DNA from: Octopus vulgaris | Taxonomy: Eukaryota | NCBI GenBank assembly: GCA_951406725.2 | Contig: OX597814.1 | Coordinates: 150,412,001 to 150,476,000 of the forward strand | DNA: 64,000 nucleotides | Direction of reading: 5' to 3' | Part shown: positions 1,257 to 59,969 of the stretch, in pieces | Layout of the letters: each line of letters opens with the position of its first letter | Numbering within the stretch: the first letter of the stretch is position 1 | Position numbers and translations under genes: made by a program | Notes under the pieces: generated by a model | Told to the model about the DNA's origin: nothing | What the model saw: the letters and a program-made list of their open reading frames with translations, nothing else | The model's database searches: none

Positions 1257-1487
1257 CTTTTCTTTACTACCCACAAGGGGCTAAACATACAGAGGACAAA
1301 CAAGGACAGACAAACGGATTAAGTTGATTACGTCGACCCCAGTGCGTAACTGGTACTTAATTTATCGACTCCGAAAGGACGAAAGGCAAAGTCGACCTCG
1401 GTGGAATTTGAACTCAGAACGTAACGGCAGACGAAATACAGCTACGCATTTCGCCCGGCGTGCTTACGGTTCTGCCAGCTCGCCGCC
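1257..1487 (-). mobile_element. tRNA-derived SINE family 1 monomer (tail A), 16-bp TSD
   Basis: Minus strand reads GGCGGCGAGCTGGCAGAA (A-box-like)...GAGTTCAAATTCC (B-box-like)...GCCCCTTGTGGGTAGTAAAGAAA. Flanked by the direct repeat AGTTCTAGTAACAAAC at 1241-1256 and 1490-1505. Confidence 0.85.
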
Positions 1488-5945: not shown

Positions 5946-7065
5946 TGTTTGTGTACAATATAAAAATGTGATCCGGCTATCAGGGTCACAAATGTAGTTA
6001 AATGCCGACGTAATTTGATTGGATGAATCAACCGAAAATCCAGGATATATAAGCTTCAAAGTTTCCATTGATGAGCATATAAGCAAAAAACAAGAGATTT
6101 GAGGAAAAGAGCTTAAAAATTTCCTTAAGTGTTAACAGCTGTTATTTCTCTAAAAAACGTGTGTGTGTATTCGTGTACATGCGCATGCGCGTGTTTGCTA
6201 TAATTCGCTGTCATACTCATTAAATACTTTAATAAGTTTTATCAGAAATACTCCGAGATTCTGATGGTATTTTTCCAAACGCTGATATAAACACACACCC
6301 ACGGACATAAATACGTACATAAATATATATTATACAGACATATACGTATACAAGAATATATTGGTTTCATGTTTTGGTACAAGGCCTTCATTTTCTAAGC
6401 TAGGGGTAAGTCGTTCACATAGATCCCAGTGCTAAGCCGATACTTATTTTATCGACCCCGAAAGGATGAAAAGCAAAGTTGACCTCGGCGGGATTTGAAC
6501 TCAGAATGTGATAGACGGATATGATGCCGCTAAGCATTTTGCCTGGTGGCGTAATGACGTTTCTATATAGATATATTGAAATGCATTATATACTAGGAAC
6601 ACCTCGCGTTTCACGTACCTGGATATAGATTAAACAGAGCCCAAGAAGAAAAAAAATTGCCATTCGGTGATATTTCAATGTTTTGCAAATGAATATTAGC
6701 TAGTTCATTTCCAAATTATCTTATTTGTTTTTTGACTCCTAAAAAGGTTCTGCATGTATTAATATAATACAAAGATCCAGTTGCCAGAAAAATTATCATG
6801 TTCCCGATATGTAATTAATTCTTCAAATATATGCGCATGCCTTGAACTGTCCTTCATTTAGTTTTTTATATCATTAAGAGTGTGTGTGTATGTGAGCCTG
6901 TGGGCGTTTGTGTGTGTATGTGTGTATATCTGACTGTGTGTGTTAAGTAATTATAAACAATAACTACCATTCATTTACTAATGACGAAACTCAGCACTAA
7001 AAGCCGTTTCCTTTTCCTTTTTCATTTAGAGCCAATTTTGACCGGCCACCTTCTTAGTAGCCATA

Positions 7066-7645
7066 ATCGTTTCTTCTCTAGGCACATGGCCCGAAATTTT
7101 GGGACAAGGGACCAGTTGATTAGATCGACCTTAGTACGCAACTGGTACTTTATTTGTCGACCCCGAAAGGATGAAAGGCAAAGTCGACCTCGGCGGAATT
7201 TGAACTCAGAAAGTAAAGACAGAGGAAATACCTATTTCTTTACTGCCCACAAGGAGCAACACACAGAGAGGACAAACAAGGACAGACAAACGGATTAAGT
7301 CTATTATATCGACCCCAGTGCGTAACTGGTAATTAACTTATCAACACCGAAAGGATGAAAGACAAAGTCGACCTCGGCGGAATTTGAACTCAGAACGTAA
7401 TGGCAGACGAAATACCTATTTCTTTATTACCCACAAGGGGCTAAACATAGAAGGGAAAAACAAGGACATACATAGATATTAAGTCTATTACATCGACCCT
7501 AGTGCATAATTGGTATTTAATTTATCGACTCCGAAAGGATGAAAAGCAAAGTCGACCTCGGCGGAATTTGAACTCACAACAACGACAGACGAAATACGGC
7601 TGCGCATTTTGCCCGGCGTGCTAACGTTTCTGCCAGCTCGCCGCC
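7066..7645 (-). mobile_element. SINE family 1 trimer (head + 2 tail-A units + 1 tail-B unit), 15-bp TSD
   Basis: About 184-bp units with junctions at 7232/7233 and 7416/7417. TSD TTCTTAGTAGCCATA at 7051-7065 and 7648-7662. Confidence 0.85.
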
Positions 7646-9679
7646 CTTTCTTAGTAGCCATATTGTGAAAATTGCGTTTTGTTCTGTTGCCTGTCGTTTA
7701 AATGTTAAAGTCTTGTAGATCTTTATTGTCCCAGGTATTGTGATAATTTTTAGTGTATGAATTATGGAGTAGCGTTGTCTCTCCAAGAACACAAGTTCAG
7801 CCATTCTTTGCTCTATATATGTATGTAAGCATGTATGTATGTATGTATGTATGTATGTATGTATGTATGTATGTATGTATGTATGTATGTATGTATGTAG
7901 GTTGGTGCGTTTATGTATGTATGTATGTATGTAGGTAGGTTGGTTTATGTATTATGTATGTATGTATGTATGTATGTAGGTTGGTGCGCTTATGTATGTA
8001 TGTATGATCTCTGTCTGAAACAACATTCTCCTTTCTCTCTCTCTCTCACTCGTTTTCTAGTAATTAGGTTTTAAGCACACTGTCACACAGAGCAATTAAT
8101 TGCTTATCAATTTGAAATTCGGAAATGGAAATATTTAGAAAGTGTTCAAATACCACTAATAATCAGGTGCAGGAAGATCGCGTCGTCGACGACGCTGTTC
8201 ACCTTAATATATTATTGTCAATGTAGATGAGAAACAATGAATATAGTTAACAACTGATTAACAGTAATACTCCCACGATGAAGATTAAAACAAAACAATG
8301 ACGTCTTTATGTTCAAATTTCGTAGGAGAAAACAGGATATCGTAAATCATTTCGTTCTACTTTCAGTTTGTTTTTAAATTGCTAATCTGTCAGTAATGTT
8401 ATAAAATCATTTACTGAAACTTTAAATTAGATTACTTAAGTTTTTCTCTAGATCCAATAAAAGACAATTATTTTCAAAATGATCAAATGACTGCGAATAC
8501 GACCTTAATCGATATTAATATATTTGATATGTTAAATGGCAGAAGGGCTGTCATTTATTGCTTCTTCATTGCACGTGAAATTAATATTAAAATGTGGAAA
8601 ATGGGATAAAAAATTCATCGTTTTTGTTTTCAACTCTTTTAATCTCTCTTCTGTTATACTATATTATTTATATCGAGGAATTTTCATTTCTCTTCCTATT
8701 GACAATCTTAATGTATGTACACGTCCTTCCTCTTCCACCACCACCTACTAGCTCTCATTAAATAATGTCATGCCGCTCACAACTTGAAACATTAATTTAT
8801 TAACATTTAATACGGTTTAAATCTCAAATTCTTCACAACAGATTTTGGTAATTTGATTAATTCTATTTAGCAAGCTTTAGTACCTGTCAGATTTTTGCTG
8901 GAAAAAAAAAATCAGTATAATATAAGATTGAATATAAGATTGCAACACAAATAATATATATATGAAAAAGAAAGCATGAAAAATATTTACTAAAAGTATA
9001 AAGATTAAACGCAAGTAGTAATTCATTTATTGTTGTTTGTTTATGAGATTAATTTTCATATTATTGGCATGTGCTATGTGAGTGGCCAATGGGTGAAATT
9101 GAAGTAGATGTGATATAACATTTTTATAATGTTCTAATTTATACTTTGAGATAATTTTATTAATCTTGACATCTGTGGTCAACAGTAGTCAGCACCCTTG
9201 TTAGATGCTGTATTTACGCAAAATATACAAAGACTGGTTCCTACTGTTTGTCTGTGTGTTAATTGATCCACAGTTAATAGGTTCGCAACTAATGGGTATC
9301 TGGATTATGAGATGGTCTATTTCTCAGGGATTGATAGCATCTTCTGGTTAAAGGCCTTCTAAATAATCTTTCTCATAAATAAGAAAATTGAGTGTACGAC
9401 TATTTATAATAAAATTAAGCTGATTTCCAACATTTTAAACTTACCCAACACTAAGACGAAAACGAAAGATTAAATGCATGCAAACATTACTTCGTCTTCT
9501 TATTTATAAGAAGTAGGGGTTGTCATAAAACATTCAGTATTTGAGTGGGAATATATTCTTGTGTTAGAGCCTCTAAACCAAGGAAAGCTAAACCGAGGAC
9601 TAGAAGCTAAATTGAAGATAATATAAAGAATTTGAAGCTTTCACAATGAACTGCACCAAATCACTTGAAGCTAGAAGGC

Positions 9680-26561: not shown

Positions 26562-27149
26562 GAAAAAGAAAGGAAGAAAACAAGAAAACAAGGAATAGGG
26601 AGAGGAAGGGATTCAAGGTGTGTTTCAAGCTTAAGTTATTTCCAGATATATACTAGAGTGAGATTTCTAAATGGTTCTTCCCACGAGCATTAACAATAAC
26701 TGTTTATGATTCTATATTTAACTTGTTTTCTTTAAGTTGTTTTAAAGTTCACCCTTAAAATTACAGTGGTCCGCTTCTATTTGGTTGGTTTGATGTCTCT
26801 TTTATCACAATCGTGAAACGGGGCTAATGGTTAGGTCACGAATACATCTAATGTAAAAATTGTCAACATTTTCTTAGCTTGTTTCCGACAATTTTCTATT
26901 CATACAGACTGTTCTCTTTTATCCTTAACTCTTAAGCTACGAAACTTTGTTAATAAATATTAGTAAACGGAAATTGTGTTGAAGCTTATCCAGTGATCTC
27001 TTCCTAGTTCTGAGAAAAAGACTTAATTCATTGTTCCACCAAATCATTGTGCGTTTGCAGTATTAGAACCTGTTGTTCAACATAAGGAAGATTTTATTCC
27101 ATCAGTAATGGAGCTCATATAAGTCTGTTGATGCACAGGTATGGGCTTC

Positions 27150-27800: not shown

Positions 27801-30464
27801 GTTTGTCTGTCATGGAGCACGTACCTTAATTCTTGCAACACAGCTTTAGCGTATGTCACTGATGAAGTGGTCAAAGGTCAATCTTACTTCAAGCAATGTC
27901 TATCCTGAGCACTTTTTCTAAATTTTTAAGCCTTCTTTTAATTTAGTTTTCTCTATCGCTATTTGTTCACAAAACCTTATCGATCTTCCTCAAATCTCCC
28001 GTTTAAGGAAAAGCCACCATCTGTTATTGACAATTGCTCACGTCAACACCTGCTAAAGTAATTCCCTAATCCAGTCTCTGTAAGTTTGACGTGCTAAGAA
28101 AAACACGTTTAGCTTCCAGTAGCACGAAACTATGTGACATGCACAATTTTTTTTATTCTTGTAAGAACACTTTCCGCTGAACTTATAAAATGTGATGGCG
28201 ATATATTTCAAGAAGCTCTGATTATACATACAAACCGCTGACATCTTGGGAAGTTTTGTTAATTTTCAGCATGATATCGACATTATCTTCCACATTTTCT
28301 CCCTCCCTAAGAGACATTGATAATAGAAACGTATCCTAGACAATTTATTTGACAGGAGTAACACTGTTTATATCATTATATCAACTCCATTACTTATTAG
28401 TTGTTATTAATTTCTCTTAAAACCGGAGAAATATATAATTTTGCTTTATCAGTTCAACATATTATTTTATCAAATTTCTCCGAAGTTATTCCTATATTTT
28501 TGCAATGTAATTTACGAGAGAAAATTCCAGCCAGGTTTTGCCGAAAAGCAAGTTGTTATCAGTGTTATTATGTTATAAATAAGAATCCATTTTTATTATT
28601 TATTACAATTTATTGATTATTGCTGAACAAATTTTGTGTTTGACTTTCTAATATTTCTCTTGTAAATCCGCGTCAATCCTATTGATATCACACATACACA
28701 CATAGACACACAGATACACACACATACAAAATCATGCATACACATATAAATGTCCATACGCTTGGACATTGACTTCAACTTTATTCAAAATTAATTTTTA
28801 TTATTGCACAACAGTTGCCTAACCTCCTTTCGGATTCGGTAATAAAAGTACCAGTCAAGTACTGGGATCTGTATAATCGATGAGACCCCGCAACACAAAA
28901 TTTCAGGCCTCGTGCCTAAAGTACAATGGATTATTACACGACAATAAAAGTAATGAGTTTCTGGAATCATTAGCACTCCGGACAAAACGCTTAGCGGCAT
29001 TTCGCTCGTCAATACTTTCCTAGTTGAAATTCCGCCGAGGTCGGTTAACTTTCATTTCTTCAGGGTCGATAAAGCAAGTACTAGTTGAAAACTGGAGTCG
29101 ATATAATCAACTTCCTCCACTCAATAAATACTCACCGCTTTCGCTAGTTTAAATACTAAAATAATGCTTTTTTTCTAATTTCTGTACAAAGCCAGTAGTT
29201 TTGAGGTTGTTGACCCTGTAGTACTTTTGAGGTTGTTGACCCTGTAGTACTTAACTTCATTTTATCAACACCGAAAATCGCAGCAAGCTGACGAGGTAGG
29301 CATTCAAGTATATCCTGCATCTGGGCTGCTACACGTACCAATCAGACGAGCAAAGTGATACGTTGCACGTGTACCACTCATCCTCGTTCTCCAAAGACCG
29401 AACTGAGGTTTTGTTGAGCGTACTGCTATTGTTGTTTCTGCTACTGTGTAGGCGGTGTCTGCTGCTGTTGTTGTCAACTTTATTGATGATGTAGTATTTC
29501 CTGTTACTCCATCTCTTACAGATGTATTTGTTGTAGGTGGTACTTACATTGTTGCAAATGGGGCTGGAACCACTATTGTTGGTGTTGTAGTTGCTACTGT
29601 TATTGTCGCTGTTGATGTTGTGCTGTTGGCAGCAGTGGAGGCCATTTTCTTTCTATCACTGTCTGTTATAAAAGATGGGTTGCATTGTGTGGCACATTAC
29701 TGGTGTCTAGTCTTCCTACTCTTCACTACCACCTGCATCTGCTGTCTTCTTGGTAACTATATTACGTCGGAGTTCCCATCAGTCTCGCGTTTCAGCTGAA
29801 TCAGGGTCTAACCGCATTTTAAGCTAATTTTGTTTTGAGAATCTTTTTATTTATTAGTTGCAGTGTGGATGAATCGTTAAAACGATGAATTTTTAATGTC
29901 TATATAAGATTTATAGTTCTGATGGATGTTCGCAATTTTTATCTGAACACATCACTGGTAAACTGGTATCAGAGTAAATTACTTATTTCTACATGAGACG
30001 TTGAAGTACTTTTGGGCCAGGATCTAAGAGTGAAATTTTATTCACATAGTCATATCGCCTGAAATTTAGGCAAAGTCCTAGACTCTAGATATACTTTTCA
30101 AGCAGAGTTCACTTCACTCTTACCATTCCTTCATTTGTTTACTCTAGGAATTGTGGGGATATTGTAAGTTTGACTTTGTTACAGAGTTGATTGAAGTATT
30201 TCTCTGGTTGGTCCAGATACAACCTTCTGGAACAGAAAACAAACTTACAGAGCTTCTAAAACACGTCCAGCTACGACAATGAACAAAATAACTGTTTCTA
30301 AGTTTGGTACAAGGCCAGAAATTGTATGGGCGAGGTTAGACGCTATCATGATCCAAGTGCTTGATTAGCATTTTATAAACCCCAAAAGAAACAAATGCAG
30401 AGTTGTTCATATAGGAGAGACCTGAACTGAAAGCGTAAAGGGCCAGAACAAATACCGCAAAGCA

Positions 30465-45706: not shown

Positions 45707-46399
45707 CACATACACACAGTTATACTATATACGTATGCGAATTTATGACAATTGAGAGAAACAGATACTACCTGATAACACCCTCTTGTGGGTATCGGAT
45801 ATTGGTTGGGGTAAGTCGTTGTTTAAAGCTTGGCTATATACCTGATAGTATGCCGATTAAAGCACTTTCACTCTCTATGGCTAACTGATATCATTCATAG
45901 TATTGATAGAAATGCCACTGCATTATTTTTATTATTATGTCCGTGTTCATTAATTCCTCAGTGTTCGTCAAATATAGAACAAAGAAAAATAGAAAATGGA
46001 TGTCACGAGATTCTTTATTAATCAAAACAATCGTTTCGACCCGTATTACATTGGTCCCTCACCCGTGAGATACTGTACAACCGGTTTGTGGTGCATCCTT
46101 CGTTGCAGATATGTCATGTCCCGTAACTTTACAAAAGGTACCTCGCTGAATAAACTTGGTTTCGCTTGCTTCGATTATCTTTTAGAGAAACATCGAGTGT
46201 TAGTTTTTCATATATTGAATGTTATACATCGTGGAAACAGCCACAGGACCACGTTCCACTAAACTCATTTTGTGATACAACAAAATAAACACATGCACAC
46301 GCGCACACACACACACACACGTGCGCGCATCCACCAACGCACACGCACACACATACCTGAGCGCGTGGAACAAATGTAGAAAGTTCTGTGCTAGATATT

Positions 46400-46979
46400 C
46401 TTTTCTACTCTAGGCACAAGGCCCGAACCTTTGGGGAAGGGGGCCAGTCGATTAGATCGATCCCAGTACGCAACTGGTACTTAATCTATCGACCCCGAAA
46501 GGATGAAAGACAAAGTTAACCTCGGTGGAATTTGTACCCAGAACGTCAAGACAGACGAAATACCTATTTCTTTACTACCCACAAGGAGCTAAACACAGAG
46601 AGGACAATCAAAGACAGACAAACGGATTAAGTCGATTATATCGACCCCAGTGCGTAACTGGTACTTATTTAATCGATCCCGAAATGATGAAAGGTAAAGT
46701 CGACCTCGGTGGAATTTGAACTCAGAACGAAACGGCAGACGAGATACCTATTTGTTTACTACCCCCAAGGGGCTAAACACAGAGAGCACAAACAAGGACA
46801 GACAAACGGATTAAGTCTATTATATCGACCCCAGTGCGTAACTGGTACTTATTTAATCGACCCCGAAAGGATGAAAGGCAAAGTCGACCTCGGCGGAATT
46901 TGAACTCAGAACGTACTGGCAGACGAAATGCCGCTAAGCATTTCGCCCGTCGTGCTAACGTTTCTGCCAGCTCGCCGCC
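46400..46979 (-). mobile_element. SINE family 1 trimer (head + 2 tail-A units + tail-B unit), 17-bp TSD
   Basis: Units at 46749-46932, 46565-46748 and 46400-46564. TSD GTTC(T/C)GTGCTAGATATT at 46383-46399 and 46982-46998. Confidence 0.9.
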
Positions 46980-47649
46980 TTGTTCCGTGCTAGATATTGA
47001 TAAACAAAGATTTCACTGATTTAAGTGAAATCTAGCCAGACTATACATAAAGTAATACCTGTACTTGAAACAGCCTTATATTAAGATTCCTGTGTATATA
47101 ATATTTATTATGCCTATACAGACGTAGAATGATACGACCTGTAATATTTTATATGAGAGAAATATCTCAAAGTGACTTGTTGTTCCGATATAGAAATCCG
47201 TAAACAAAATATTTACTGGTTTGTGCGAAGTTAGCTTTTTTTATTGTAAGAGGGAGAATCATGTTGTCAGGAGTCAATTTTCATTTAATTTTCAATACTG
47301 AATTAAATTCAAGCTTAATGGAATGAAGTATTTCATATAAATATTATACATATATTTCATTCAATTTTCTTTTCTCGTTTCAACTATGAAGTCTATTTCA
47401 GTTTAACTGAAAAGTAATGAAGGGCCTATTAATTGCATTATAATATTTACTTTACAGAAGAAAAAATAAACATTCTGGAAATGAGAGATAGAGAAAAGAT
47501 ATATTATGGAAGTATACAATGTTTGTAAATGTATAATTATATATGTGTGTTTATGTATAAATTCTAAGCTTCTTAATTTTGATTGATCTTCTGAAGAAAA
47601 TTAAGAAAGCAGATATTTACATGTATGTAGTTGAATATACAAATTTGTG

Positions 47650-51664: not shown

Positions 51665-54757
<3,093 letters not shown>

Positions 54758-55633: not shown

Positions 55634-56420
55634 ATTTCTTTATTAGCCACATAGGGCCGAACACAGAGGGGACAAAATAGAATGTAGAGCTTTTCTTTTC
55701 GAAAATAGAAAAAAAGGAGAAAAATACAATTTCGATCAAAAATGATCGTGTATCACAGAAAATTTTTTAAAGTGTAAAAAGCAAGATTAGATTTATCCGT
55801 GGAAAGAAAAGCCTACGGAAAAAACCAAGGTAGCCTCAGGCAGGGAGGGAATAAAAACATAAGATCAAAGTGCTCTCTCTCTCTCTCTCTCACTCTCTTT
55901 TTTCGATTTATAGTATCATGCTCAAAGTCATTTCATCACTCACTCTTTGCTACATTCACCTACCTTTTATTGAAACTTTCACGAGACAAAACTTTACATG
56001 ATAGACTCGGTCGACAGTCAGACTTGTCCCATACGTGACAGCAGCCGTTCGACATAAGCCCACAGGTCCGAAACGGCTGGACACTGCACGGGTGTGTGCA
56101 GAACCGTATCGTCGCTCTGACCGCATCTCGGGCAAGTCAGTCCAGTGTGTCTCGAACCGTGCCTGTAGAGCTTATCCCGAACGGGTAATGCTTCTCGATA
56201 GCATTGCCAGGCCAGGGATCTCTGGTGATTGTCCATAGGTCACGGCCCGAAAGTTGTCCTGAACAGGCGGGTCAGGTGTCCCTCGTCGACACCCAGATTC
56301 TGCCCGAGAACGACGTCGCACCACACCTCCAAAAATCCTGTATAGAACACCTTTGTGGAAAAATTAATCACCTCTACAGTACCATTTAGAAAATAATTGA
56401 GGGTGCAGGTTCCTGGTTGC
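55634..56420 (-). mobile_element. Tx1/L1-group LINE 3' end abutting (GATA)n
   Basis: LAWQCYREALPVRDKL.....TCPRCGQSDDTVLH..VQCP...LW is the CCHC zinc knuckle typical of Tx1/L1 ORF2. The 3' end AATAAAGAAAT runs into (TATC)n. Confidence 0.7.
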
Positions 56421-57055: not shown

Positions 57056-57817
57056 AGGAAAACAGATACCTGCTTAATGCGGGCTGACTTGGTAATAAAC
57101 TGCAAAAACAACAGTGACAAGAATGCTGGTACTCCGTCGGTTACCACGGCGAGTGTTCCAGTTGAATCGATCAACGGAGATAAACTTTCATGTGACTAAG
57201 CATTCAACAGACACGCGTAACTTTAGAGATACAGCGTGATACAGAATGTGACATGGTTGGCCTTTTGAATTACAGATGAGTCATTTTTATCAGTTCAGTA
57301 AATTGGAGCAATGTGAAATAAACTGTCTTATTGAAGGACGTAGCGCGCCACTGGGAATCGAGCTCACGACTGTAAGGTCTTGAGTCGAATGCCCTAATCA
57401 CTAAGCCAGATGCTTTCACAAAAGTAGCAGCAACAGTAGCAGTGCTGATGTTTGCACTGCTTTTAATGCTAAGCCATATACCCCTTCAGAACTAAATGGA
57501 TTCGACCGTTGCGACTGAAGTGTCTTGGTTTCATCAGGTTGTGAGTGACATGGACATGAATGAGCCAAATGTCTCTCAGCAAGATATCTGTTCATTATTG
57601 AATCAGCCGTTAAATTTCCCAGATAAAAATATATTGATCTTAATTAGAGATGTGTACACAAAGATATTATCGATTTTTTCCTTTCGAGATGAAATATCTG
57701 AAAAGCAAAACTCAAACATATGAATTCAAATTGTAACTTAAAGAGAAGTTTCAGAAAAACAGCGGTTCATAGCAGGATGAAGGTAGTTGTGATTTGGCTA
57801 TTATCATTATTATTATT

Positions 57818-58994
57818 GAAAGCGGCACGCTGGCAGAATCGTTAGCACGCCGGGCGAAATGCTTAGCGGTATTTCGCCTGCGTTACGTTGTGAGTTCAAA
57901 TTCCGCCGAGGTCGACTTTGCCTTTCATCCTTTCGGGGTCGATAAATTAAATACCAGTTACGCACTGGGGTCGATGTAATCGACCTAATACCTATGTCTG
58001 TCCTTGTTTGTCCCCTCTATGTTTAGCCCCTTGTGGGTAGTAAAGAAATAGGTATTTCGCCTGCTCTTACGTTCTGAGTTCAAATTCCGCCGAGGTCGAC
58101 TTTGCCTTTCATCCTTTCAGGGTAGATTAGATAAGTACCAGTTACGCACTGGGGTCAATATAATCGACTTAATCCGTTTGTCTGTCTTTGATTGTCCTCT
58201 TTGTGTTTAGCCCCTTTGTGGGTAGTAAATAAATAAGTATTTCTTCTGCCGCTACGTTCTGAGCTCAAATTCCGCCGAGGTCGACTTTGCTTTTCATCCT
58301 TTCGGGGTCGATTAAATAAGTACCAGTTACGCACTGGAGTCGATATAATCGACTTAATCCGTTTGTCCATCCTTGTTTGTCCTCTCTGTGTTTAGCTCTT
58401 TGTGGGTAGTAAAGAAATAGGTATTCTCTCCTTGATACCATCTGAGTTTAAATTTTGCCGAGGTCGACTTTGCTTTTCGTCCTTTTTGGCTCTATCAATT
58501 AAATACCAGTTACGTACTCGGGTCTATCTAATCGGCTGGCCCTCTCCCCACAAATTTCAGGTTTTTCGCCTATAGTAGAAAGGATTGTTATTATTGAAGG
58601 CTGTGAGCTGGCAGAAACGTTAGCACACCGGGCGAAATGCCTTGCGGTATTTCGTTTGCCGCTATGTTCTGAGTTCAAATTACGCCGAGGTCGACTTTGC
58701 CTTTCATCCTTTCAGGATGGATTAAATAAGTACCAGATTCGCACTGAGGTCGATATAATCGACTTAATCCGTTTGTCTATCTTTGTTCGTCCCCTCTGTA
58801 CTTAGACCCTTGTGGGTAGTAAAGAAATAGGTATTTCGCCCGCGTTACGTTTTGAGTTCAAATTCCGCCGAGGTCGACTTTGCCTTTCATCCTTTAGGGG
58901 TCGACTGATTAAGTACTAGTTGCGTACTGGGGTCGATCTAATCGGCTAGCCCTTTTACCCCAAAATTTTCAAGGCCTTGCGCCTAGAGTAGAAA
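57818..58994 (+). mobile_element. Two adjacent SINE family 1 concatemers (head+A+A+A+B; head+A+B)
   Basis: Units start at 57868, 58051, 58236 and 58420. Second head near 58596 with units at 58646 and 58830. Internal junctions read AAAGAAATA|GGTATT (one degenerate, at 58235/58236). Confidence 0.9.
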
Positions 58995-59724: not shown

Positions 59725-59764
59725 AATTATAATTATTATTATCATAATTATAATTATAACGTCT

Positions 59765-59960
59765 TCAAATTTTGCCACAAGGGCAGCCATTTCGGGGAAG
59801 GGATTAGTCGGTTACTTTGGCTCCAGAGTTCCACTAGTACTTAATTTATCGACCCCGAAAGGATGACAGGCAAAGTCGATCTCGGCAGAATTTAAACTCA
59901 GAACGTTTAGATAAAATACCACTAAGCACTTCACCCGGGGTGCTAACGCTTCTGCCTCAA
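59765..59960 (-). mobile_element. SINE family 1 monomer (divergent tail)
   Basis: GACCCCGAAAGGATGA..GGCAAAGTCGA..CTCAGAACG...GCTAACGCTTCTGCC. Confidence 0.75.
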
Positions 59961-59969
59961 TAATCATAC

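Follow-up and report, generated by a model that had tools for sequence, protein, structure and literature searches.

Four tandem multimers of a short interspersed element (SINE) occur within 64,000 nucleotides of Octopus vulgaris DNA, the stretch analyzed here and called the window. How does such an element come to stand in arrays of precise units? An earlier note on this DNA offered three models: insertion of SINE RNA into existing copies, reverse transcription from RNAs cleaved at a hairpin or circularized, and descent from one master with an internal duplication. Our preferred answer, to which we assign a probability of roughly 0.7, is that each array is a row of 184-base units that come from one SINE family and meet at a fixed base, and that arrays have grown by reverse transcription of RNA with one particular tail (tail A) into the head of an older copy, by enzymes of an L1/Tx1-like LINE. 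The first of the three models fits best, on the grounds of second heads retained together with target site duplications (TSDs), a gap in age between first and last units, and a LINE at the same base.

Arrays in the window and across the genome

Profiles built from collected genomic copies define a head (H, 47 nt), a body (C, 119 nt), a tail A (65 nt), and a tail B (46 nt). Parsed with these, positions 57818-58994 hold two distinct elements, a four-unit array with its own TSD and an adjoining two-unit array. The four-unit array (H-CA-CA-CA-CB; 57821-58583, forward strand) starts with a head at 57821..57867 that has an A-box-like motif and the 5' arm and loop of a hairpin. Three units of body plus tail A follow, the first at 57868..58050 (body divergence 0.038) and the headless second and third at 58051..58235 (0.013) and 58236..58419 (0.038). 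The last unit, at 58420..58583, combines a body with a tail B of type B2 and, at a divergence of 0.114, is likely an old host copy. The 15-nt TSD of the array lies at 57806..57820, where it contains the AA that precedes most heads, and, with one mismatch, at 58584..58598, directly after which the next element starts. That element is the two-unit array H-CA-CB at 58599..58994 on the forward strand (H 58599-58645, CA 58646-58829, CB 58830-58994), which is followed by (TAA)n and in whose flanks no TSD was found.

The other two arrays are on the reverse strand and have three units each (H-CA-CA-CB). One spans 46400..46979 (H 46933-46979, CA 46749-46932, CA 46565-46748, CB 46400-46564) and the other 7068..7645 (H 7599-7645, CA 7417-7598, CA 7233-7416, CB 7068-7232); comparison of flanks places their TSDs at 46982-46998 and 46383-46399, and at 7648-7662 and 7051-7065, respectively. 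TSDs of 15–17 nt with zero or one mismatch thus flank three of the four arrays; the bracketing claimed earlier is real, but the number had been put at two. The monomer with tail A previously seen at 1257-1487 (reverse strand) parses as H-C-A with a 16-nt TSD at 1490-1505 and 1241-1256. Old monomers with a third tail, D, which belong to a related family and are the kind of copy that would serve as host, occur on the reverse strand at 59761..59967 and 6363..6578.

All eight inner junctions of the four multimers fall at one site, as the earlier note had stated, with the end of tail A joined to body position 1 (in one case with a 1-nt deletion just downstream), and the measured period of 184–185 agrees with the ∼184 bp it gave. 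Its placement of the junction within the head hairpin is right in that the junction sits where the hairpin loop meets the 3' arm (fold z of −2.26; 6 of 200 shuffles fold equally well). Where tail A meets the body (e.g., window positions 58045-58058), the last six bases of the tail and body positions 3–8 make up a head-like inverted repeat, so insertion would rebuild a similar site. In the two junctions folded, this repeat was not the lowest-energy structure.

The fixed position of the junction, which had been set as a check, holds beyond the window. The exact 25-nt junction has 26,982 matches in the 2.8 Gb genome versus 0 for a reversed control, and in collected DNA 167 of 179 A-to-C junctions are exact, in a sample enriched for exact junctions. 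Unselected DNA outside the window contains 10 arrays in 800 kb, or ∼35,000 if scaled to the genome, and most arrays have two to four units. The monomer measures ∼231 nt, and exact head-body sites number 47,438 in two alleles (G 26,590; C 20,848).

Arrays in ∼1.8 Mb of collected DNA (864 kb of it unselected for the SINE) read H(CA)n followed by nothing, by CB, or by CD, with D being the older tail. Terminal tails of 108 headed arrays, a selected sample, are B in 57 (B1 in 48 and B2 in 9), A in 34, and D in 17. A final unit that always ends in tail B, as first proposed, is therefore true of the window's four arrays but not of arrays elsewhere. Tail B is hardly ever internal, and the B-to-C junction has three matches genome-wide. 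An array with four C-B units (L137, 1012-1685, reverse strand) is an exception. The first picture was incomplete in other respects too, having overlooked A- and D-ended arrays, a second junction, a LINE partner, and later local duplications.

The second junction connects tail A to head position 15 and has 2,026 exact matches. Alleles of the tail correlate with the type of junction: allele one is found at 26,982 first-type and 222 second-type junctions, and allele two at 632 and 2,026, respectively (odds ratio ∼390). At ordinary genomic sites, GGT follows the copy in 22 of 46 cases with the first tail alleles versus 2 of 19 with the other, and A follows in 4 of 46 versus 12 of 19. TSDs were found in 31 of 67 monomers and 39 of 81 arrays (10–28 nt, mostly 15–17 nt), compared with 7 of 300 random spans, and across all tail types they show a tendency to TAT at positions 3–5. 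Other arrangements were also observed. Tandem units of 64–65 nt, each a head plus 16 nt of body and AA, occur up to eight in a row (G000:C10:17996023-17996502, L185/L186, and L317). Full elements often begin 8–26 nt past a tail B, where the AT-rich TSD or tail of the preceding copy lies (L050, L091, L116, L126, L134, L139, and window 58584-58598), and three loci (L098, L129, and L123) have inverted, head-to-head SINE joins that fold back around the tail or body.

Variable-length TSDs, high copy number, and short dispersed copies identify the family as a SINE. For two LINE families, the 3' end aligns with tail A at scores of 62 and 63 (maxima of 41 and 45 when shuffled), and no alignment of that kind was found between tails B or D and the same LINE ends. 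Neither ARAGORN nor Rfam returned a tRNA match. A-box-like and B-box-like motifs are seen by eye, and the body may resemble the Nin/Deu central domain. Near known SINEs are the octopus SINEs OK, OR1, and OR2, reportedly described by Ohshima and Okada in 1994, and the tRNA-Deu class. The family may itself be one of the three octopus SINEs, and may already be catalogued. A literature search, which covered papers rather than repeat catalogues, found no description of self-targeting octopus SINE arrays, and they are unmentioned in excerpts of an octopus repeat annotation (PMC13282606) and in excerpts of PMC8967140 and PMC9795677.

Insertions at the junction base

Direct traces of insertion into existing copies are found where a body start is followed by a new head, for which a genome search gave 117 matches. 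End-to-end template jumping was entertained for 30 of these, a reading overturned when the short piece before the new head was set against the body past the junction and proved in many cases to be a TSD. Piece and downstream body have private substitutions in common in L180, L182, L193, L111, L322, and L324, and a deletion in L208. Across 35 cases, the duplicated piece is 13–25 nt long, with 16 nt in 11. When the piece has an older head upstream, it is closer to the post-junction body than to the insert's own body in 15 cases, worse in 2, and tied in 7. With a tail A upstream, four cases speak for the TSD reading, five against, and two are ties; over all 35 pieces the tally is 19 for, 7 against, and 9 ties (p = 0.029). 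The nested form is present in 12 of 133 arrays not chosen for nesting (∼9%), and a second head is missing from the remaining ∼90%. At L111, the nested insert spans three units. At the second junction, one of four loci fits a nested insertion, and the search for nested insertions into C-allele heads gave a single match and no clean case.

Composites of another kind occur at L110, L188, L191, L192, and L207, where H-C-A plus 13–25 nt of read-through runs directly into a full element at its 5' end, apparently within one TSD; end-to-end template jumping fits these better than nested insertion does. L110 and several composites with tail A upstream and inside one TSD fit no model.

A LINE uses the same base. 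In L286, a deleted LINE with a 16-nt TSD is located between SINE head and body, and its relatives, whose tail is similar to tail A, end at body position 1 in all 30 loci that were fetched among 40 listed (29 by script and one by eye). Alleles at the site differ, however. The LINE occupies the C allele in 29 of 30 loci, whereas SINE junctions carry G in 26,982 cases and C in 246, and heads carry C in 44%. The site is thus a shared target, but the mobilizer of the SINE is more likely an older relative than this young LINE. A dedicated pattern for LINE tails at the G-allele junction yielded SINE tails in 26 of 26 loci.

Tail A is also like the 3' end of a very abundant LINE that lands on microsatellites and is represented by 34,883 candidates. 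This LINE is young (L251-L254, L058, and window 55634-56359), with many intact frames of 1,130–1,180 aa; L251 encodes an ORF1 of 704 aa with a weak zf-CCHC match and an ORF2 of 1149 aa with Exo_endo_phos, RVT_1, and zf-RVT domains. This LINE was considered as the head-targeting partner for its A-like tail and was rejected for its landing on (TCTA)n in four of four loci (L251-L254). The LINE 3' fragment in the window at 55634..56359 (reverse strand; 75% identity to residues 936-1056 of L251 ORF2, E = 3e-50) belongs to this microsatellite-landing family and not to the head-landing one; its last ∼45 nt are tail-A-like and end on (TAGA)n. Decayed ORF2 fragments with 25–34% identity to that of L251 are also located at window positions 52732-53547 and 27816-28121 (reverse strand). 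The head-landing LINE matches L251 ORF2 at ∼45–70% over the part fetched. The label "Tx1-like" for the partner follows its order of domains, which is like that of L1/Tx1 elements. A stack of ORF-bearing elements in L285 was set aside as an instance in the present SINE because it lies in a different SINE family. Other non-SINE elements with A-like tails are found at L146, L013, L014, and L022. In L146, sequence resembling head position 17 comes after the element, which is possibly the LINE for the second site.

Ages of units and the growth of arrays

If arrays grow by insertion into older copies, first and last units should differ in age. Divergence from consensus was computed on the shared body only, at 79 non-CpG, non-diagnostic sites. 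In D-ended arrays, last units are at 0.131 and first units at 0.037, with the same direction in 18 of 18; most of these arrays were retrieved with a search pattern in which the first letters of the last unit are set to the D type, and such letters are outside the compared columns. Last units match D monomers (0.137; p = 0.99) and first units match A monomers (0.034). Among themselves, the last units are 0.233 apart (minimum of 0.115) and are therefore not copies of one recent source. The same gap is present in the 11 D-ended arrays that lack a second head (0.129 vs. 0.036; 11 of 11). It is weaker in B1 arrays (0.063 vs. 0.037; of 47, 32 are up and 9 down) and in B2 arrays (0.084 vs. 0.028), and absent from A-ended arrays (0.032 vs. 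0.035). Sample sizes in this and the other comparisons are modest, and some of the samples were selected.

We propose that reverse transcription of tail-A RNA starts at the fixed base inside the host head and that, in the ∼90% of arrays that are seamless, the end of the new cDNA that carries head sequence would anneal to the head of the host, for a scarless net gain of one body-plus-tail unit. Since insertion leaves the site intact on both sides, the same site would be open to repeat hits. At head position 36, the D-type letter is found in 5 of 11 plain D arrays; it is present in 5 of 60 among A monomers (p = 0.006) and in 31 of 39 among D monomers, which fits homology-based joining at variable points of the head. 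The other 6 of 11 carry the A-type letter and count against the proposal.

Transcripts may contribute more than a template. A run of four T is absent from H, C, A, and B, and polymerase III would therefore be expected to continue past tail A. Two monomers (L056 and L058) have 26–29 nt of the next body inside their TSDs and, together with the three-unit insert of L111, they indicate that array RNAs serve as templates, so that some array transcripts would themselves be retroposed. RNA reading through from tail A into the next unit may also pair with the nicked target and sharpen the choice of site. At eight loci where the junction letter could be RNA-templated, evidence is mixed, with the host letter in two, the RNA letter with an otherwise fitting piece in two, and four uninformative. 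We advance tentatively, and with rather more doubt than belief, the fuller reading of an RNA-guided, self-targeting SINE in which the read-through 3' end guides both site and allele, arrays are both product and source of targeting, and homologous 5' joining adds 184 bases per event and seeds satellite-like arrays. This reading leans on the G allele of tail-A SINEs, the C allele of the young LINE, and the second tail allele at a second site 33 nt upstream. The split in alleles and sites could reflect either guiding by read-through or different LINE endonucleases.

Long arrays add a process at the DNA level. Near-identical neighbors, which differ at no more than two sites, make up 17 of 60 pairs in arrays with at least three CA units, compared with 1 of 41 pairs in two-unit arrays and 31 of 5000 pairs between arrays. 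They are present in 11 of 21 arrays with at least three CA units and in none of the window's own arrays. Nested sets of shared rare variants in L101, L081, and L078 are also observed. These patterns point to successive local duplication, by which long arrays would lengthen once seeded, though repeated copying of one RNA or assembly polishing may also produce near-identical neighbors.

DNA-level duplication at L101, L081, and L078 gives substance to an alternative in which recombination accounts for the plain arrays as well. An existing array would serve as template for the repair of a nicked or broken head site, by gene conversion or unequal exchange, and RNA insertion would account for the nested minority alone. 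Such repair would yield the identical difference in age and the mosaic heads, plain arrays copied from a DNA donor would look no different, and haplotypes are recombined within units. The homologous 5' joining of our own model is something that we infer rather than observe directly, and unequal recombination has been proposed for SINE arrays of the blood clam (PMC11481361, in excerpt). We nonetheless consider this alternative unlikely, because tail A is the sole internal tail, as the rarity of B-to-C junctions indicates, new units arise 5' of old ones, and TSD-bearing insertions occur at the same base.

The TSDs bear on a second alternative, that an array lands in one event when reverse transcriptase starts on a tail-B or tail-D RNA and then jumps, in register and inside the body that the two have in common, to the RNA of a tail-A array. 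A single outer TSD is what is seen in those arrays with a TSD, the composites that are not nested and lie inside one TSD (L110 and several cases with tail A upstream) are consistent with it, and so are A-type letters at the start of some last units. A test of TSD age did not separate the classes, but TSDs are kept at 12 of 13 or better in 13 of 54 B1 arrays versus 0 of 16 B1 monomers (p = 0.051). This good retention is in line with template switching, and suggests that some arrays have been retroposed whole. Template switching would, however, require that many different D copies, decayed by 13%, were each transcribed and retroposed, and it leaves D-type array heads and nested TSDs unexplained; we regard it as quite improbable.

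Concatemers copied from RNA that is cut at the hairpin and ligated or circularized would explain a junction at the loop edge of a strong hairpin, and runs of near-identical units could reflect repeated copying of one RNA. But units of two-unit arrays are unrelated, simultaneous insertion is incompatible with old last units, and nested variant sets in long arrays are expected from successive duplications. No described ribozyme family matched the unit in Rfam at E of 5–10, and on that evidence the unit does not qualify as a retrozyme, though it may have a ribozyme of an undescribed kind. A related organism's raw reads (three RNA runs from one study; unstranded cDNA) match both strands alike, at ∼0.7–0.8% of reads, with no pile-up of molecule starts or ends, in a type of library blind to small circles and cut ends. 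Contigs from four RNA runs contain the SINE family and none spans the window locus. This model is unsupported and, in our estimate, very improbable.

Relatedness of units speaks to the last of the models. Over 149 sites, adjacent units of arrays with two CA units show 9.8 differences, as many as units from different arrays (9.7). Among 27 H-CA-CB dimers, the first units represent 22 haplotypes. Diagnostic columns are moderately linked within units, and across the junction linkage is absent in 50 nonduplicate pairs save for one same-column signal, a comparison of low power. Although the junction does not vary and the tail allele goes closely with the type of junction, these haplotypes, unrelated neighbors, and absence of linkage, together with four terminal tail types, two junctions, and unequal ages within arrays, refute descent from one master, to which we give next to no credence.

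Comparison with known systems

The crocodilian pair of SINEU and Tx1-Mar is among the nearest likenesses, for there the SINE and Tx1 LINEs prefer a common site in another repeat, and sequential insertion results in tandem SINEs (Kojima 2015; PMC4494074, in excerpt). In crocodilians the site lies in a Mariner transposon, and a TSD is enclosed between tandem copies, whereas the octopus SINE targets its own head and ∼90% of its arrays have no internal TSD or second head. Features in common are insertion of a SINE and a LINE on one base (30 of 30 LINE loci), albeit with the other allele of the first letter, and a partner built of ORF1 and an endonuclease–reverse transcriptase ORF2, as in L251. The octopus system thus appears to work like SINEU and Tx1-Mar, except that it is self-targeting and usually leaves no inner TSD.

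Tandem SINEs have also been attributed to DNA-level events. TSD1-(SINE)n-TSD1 arrays of the blood clam Scapharca broughtonii, for which unequal recombination is the proposed cause (Martelossi et al. 2024; PMC11481361, in excerpt), share with octopus arrays a full-headed first unit, headless inner units, one outer TSD, and a mollusc host. Their inner units are tailless and the arrays few, with 64 elements in arrays of 4–15 units; octopus arrays differ in having inner units with a complete LINE-like tail, last units of older families, and numbers in the tens of thousands. According to excerpts of the reports, SINE-derived satellites of squamates (Vassetzky et al. 2023; PMC10702118) are ascribed to DNA duplication, and likewise the 179-bp PcH-sat of a limpet, from a Nin-SINE (PMC11121367); the blocks that they form are subtelomeric or pericentromeric. 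These satellites are similar in their tandem units shorter than the SINE, leading and trailing units, and homogenized neighbors in long arrays. Octopus arrays are unlike them in being short, dispersed, flanked by TSDs, and made of mostly unrelated units; in unit number and neighbor relatedness they depart from an sSat, defined by long homogeneous arrays with at least four middle units and a subtelomeric bias.

R2 elements join their 5' ends by homology and have an endonuclease of another kind than L1/Tx1-like elements. Site-specific insertion of R2 into 28S rDNA is aided by pairing of read-through RNA, which raises insertion of R2Ol when it pairs with the target (PMC6530143, in excerpt); for the octopus SINE such pairing is proposed, and R2 differs in being autonomous and in targeting a host gene rather than itself. 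Multimers also constitute a large share of copies of the B2 and Dip SINEs, with up to eight units, but these are full-length and joined tail to head, as opposed to headless units joined at an internal base (PMC8466645, in excerpt).

SINEs usually scatter, and the octopus SINE provides landing sites for itself and for LINEs on the scale of the genome. It offers a concrete path from an interspersed element to tandem arrays, with targeted insertion first and DNA duplication second, where the cited studies invoke recombination. The split of alleles at one base constitutes a natural test between endonuclease preference and RNA–DNA pairing in the choice of targets by L1/Tx1-like elements. Caution is also needed in dating such SINEs against a consensus, because differently aged units at one locus are blended.
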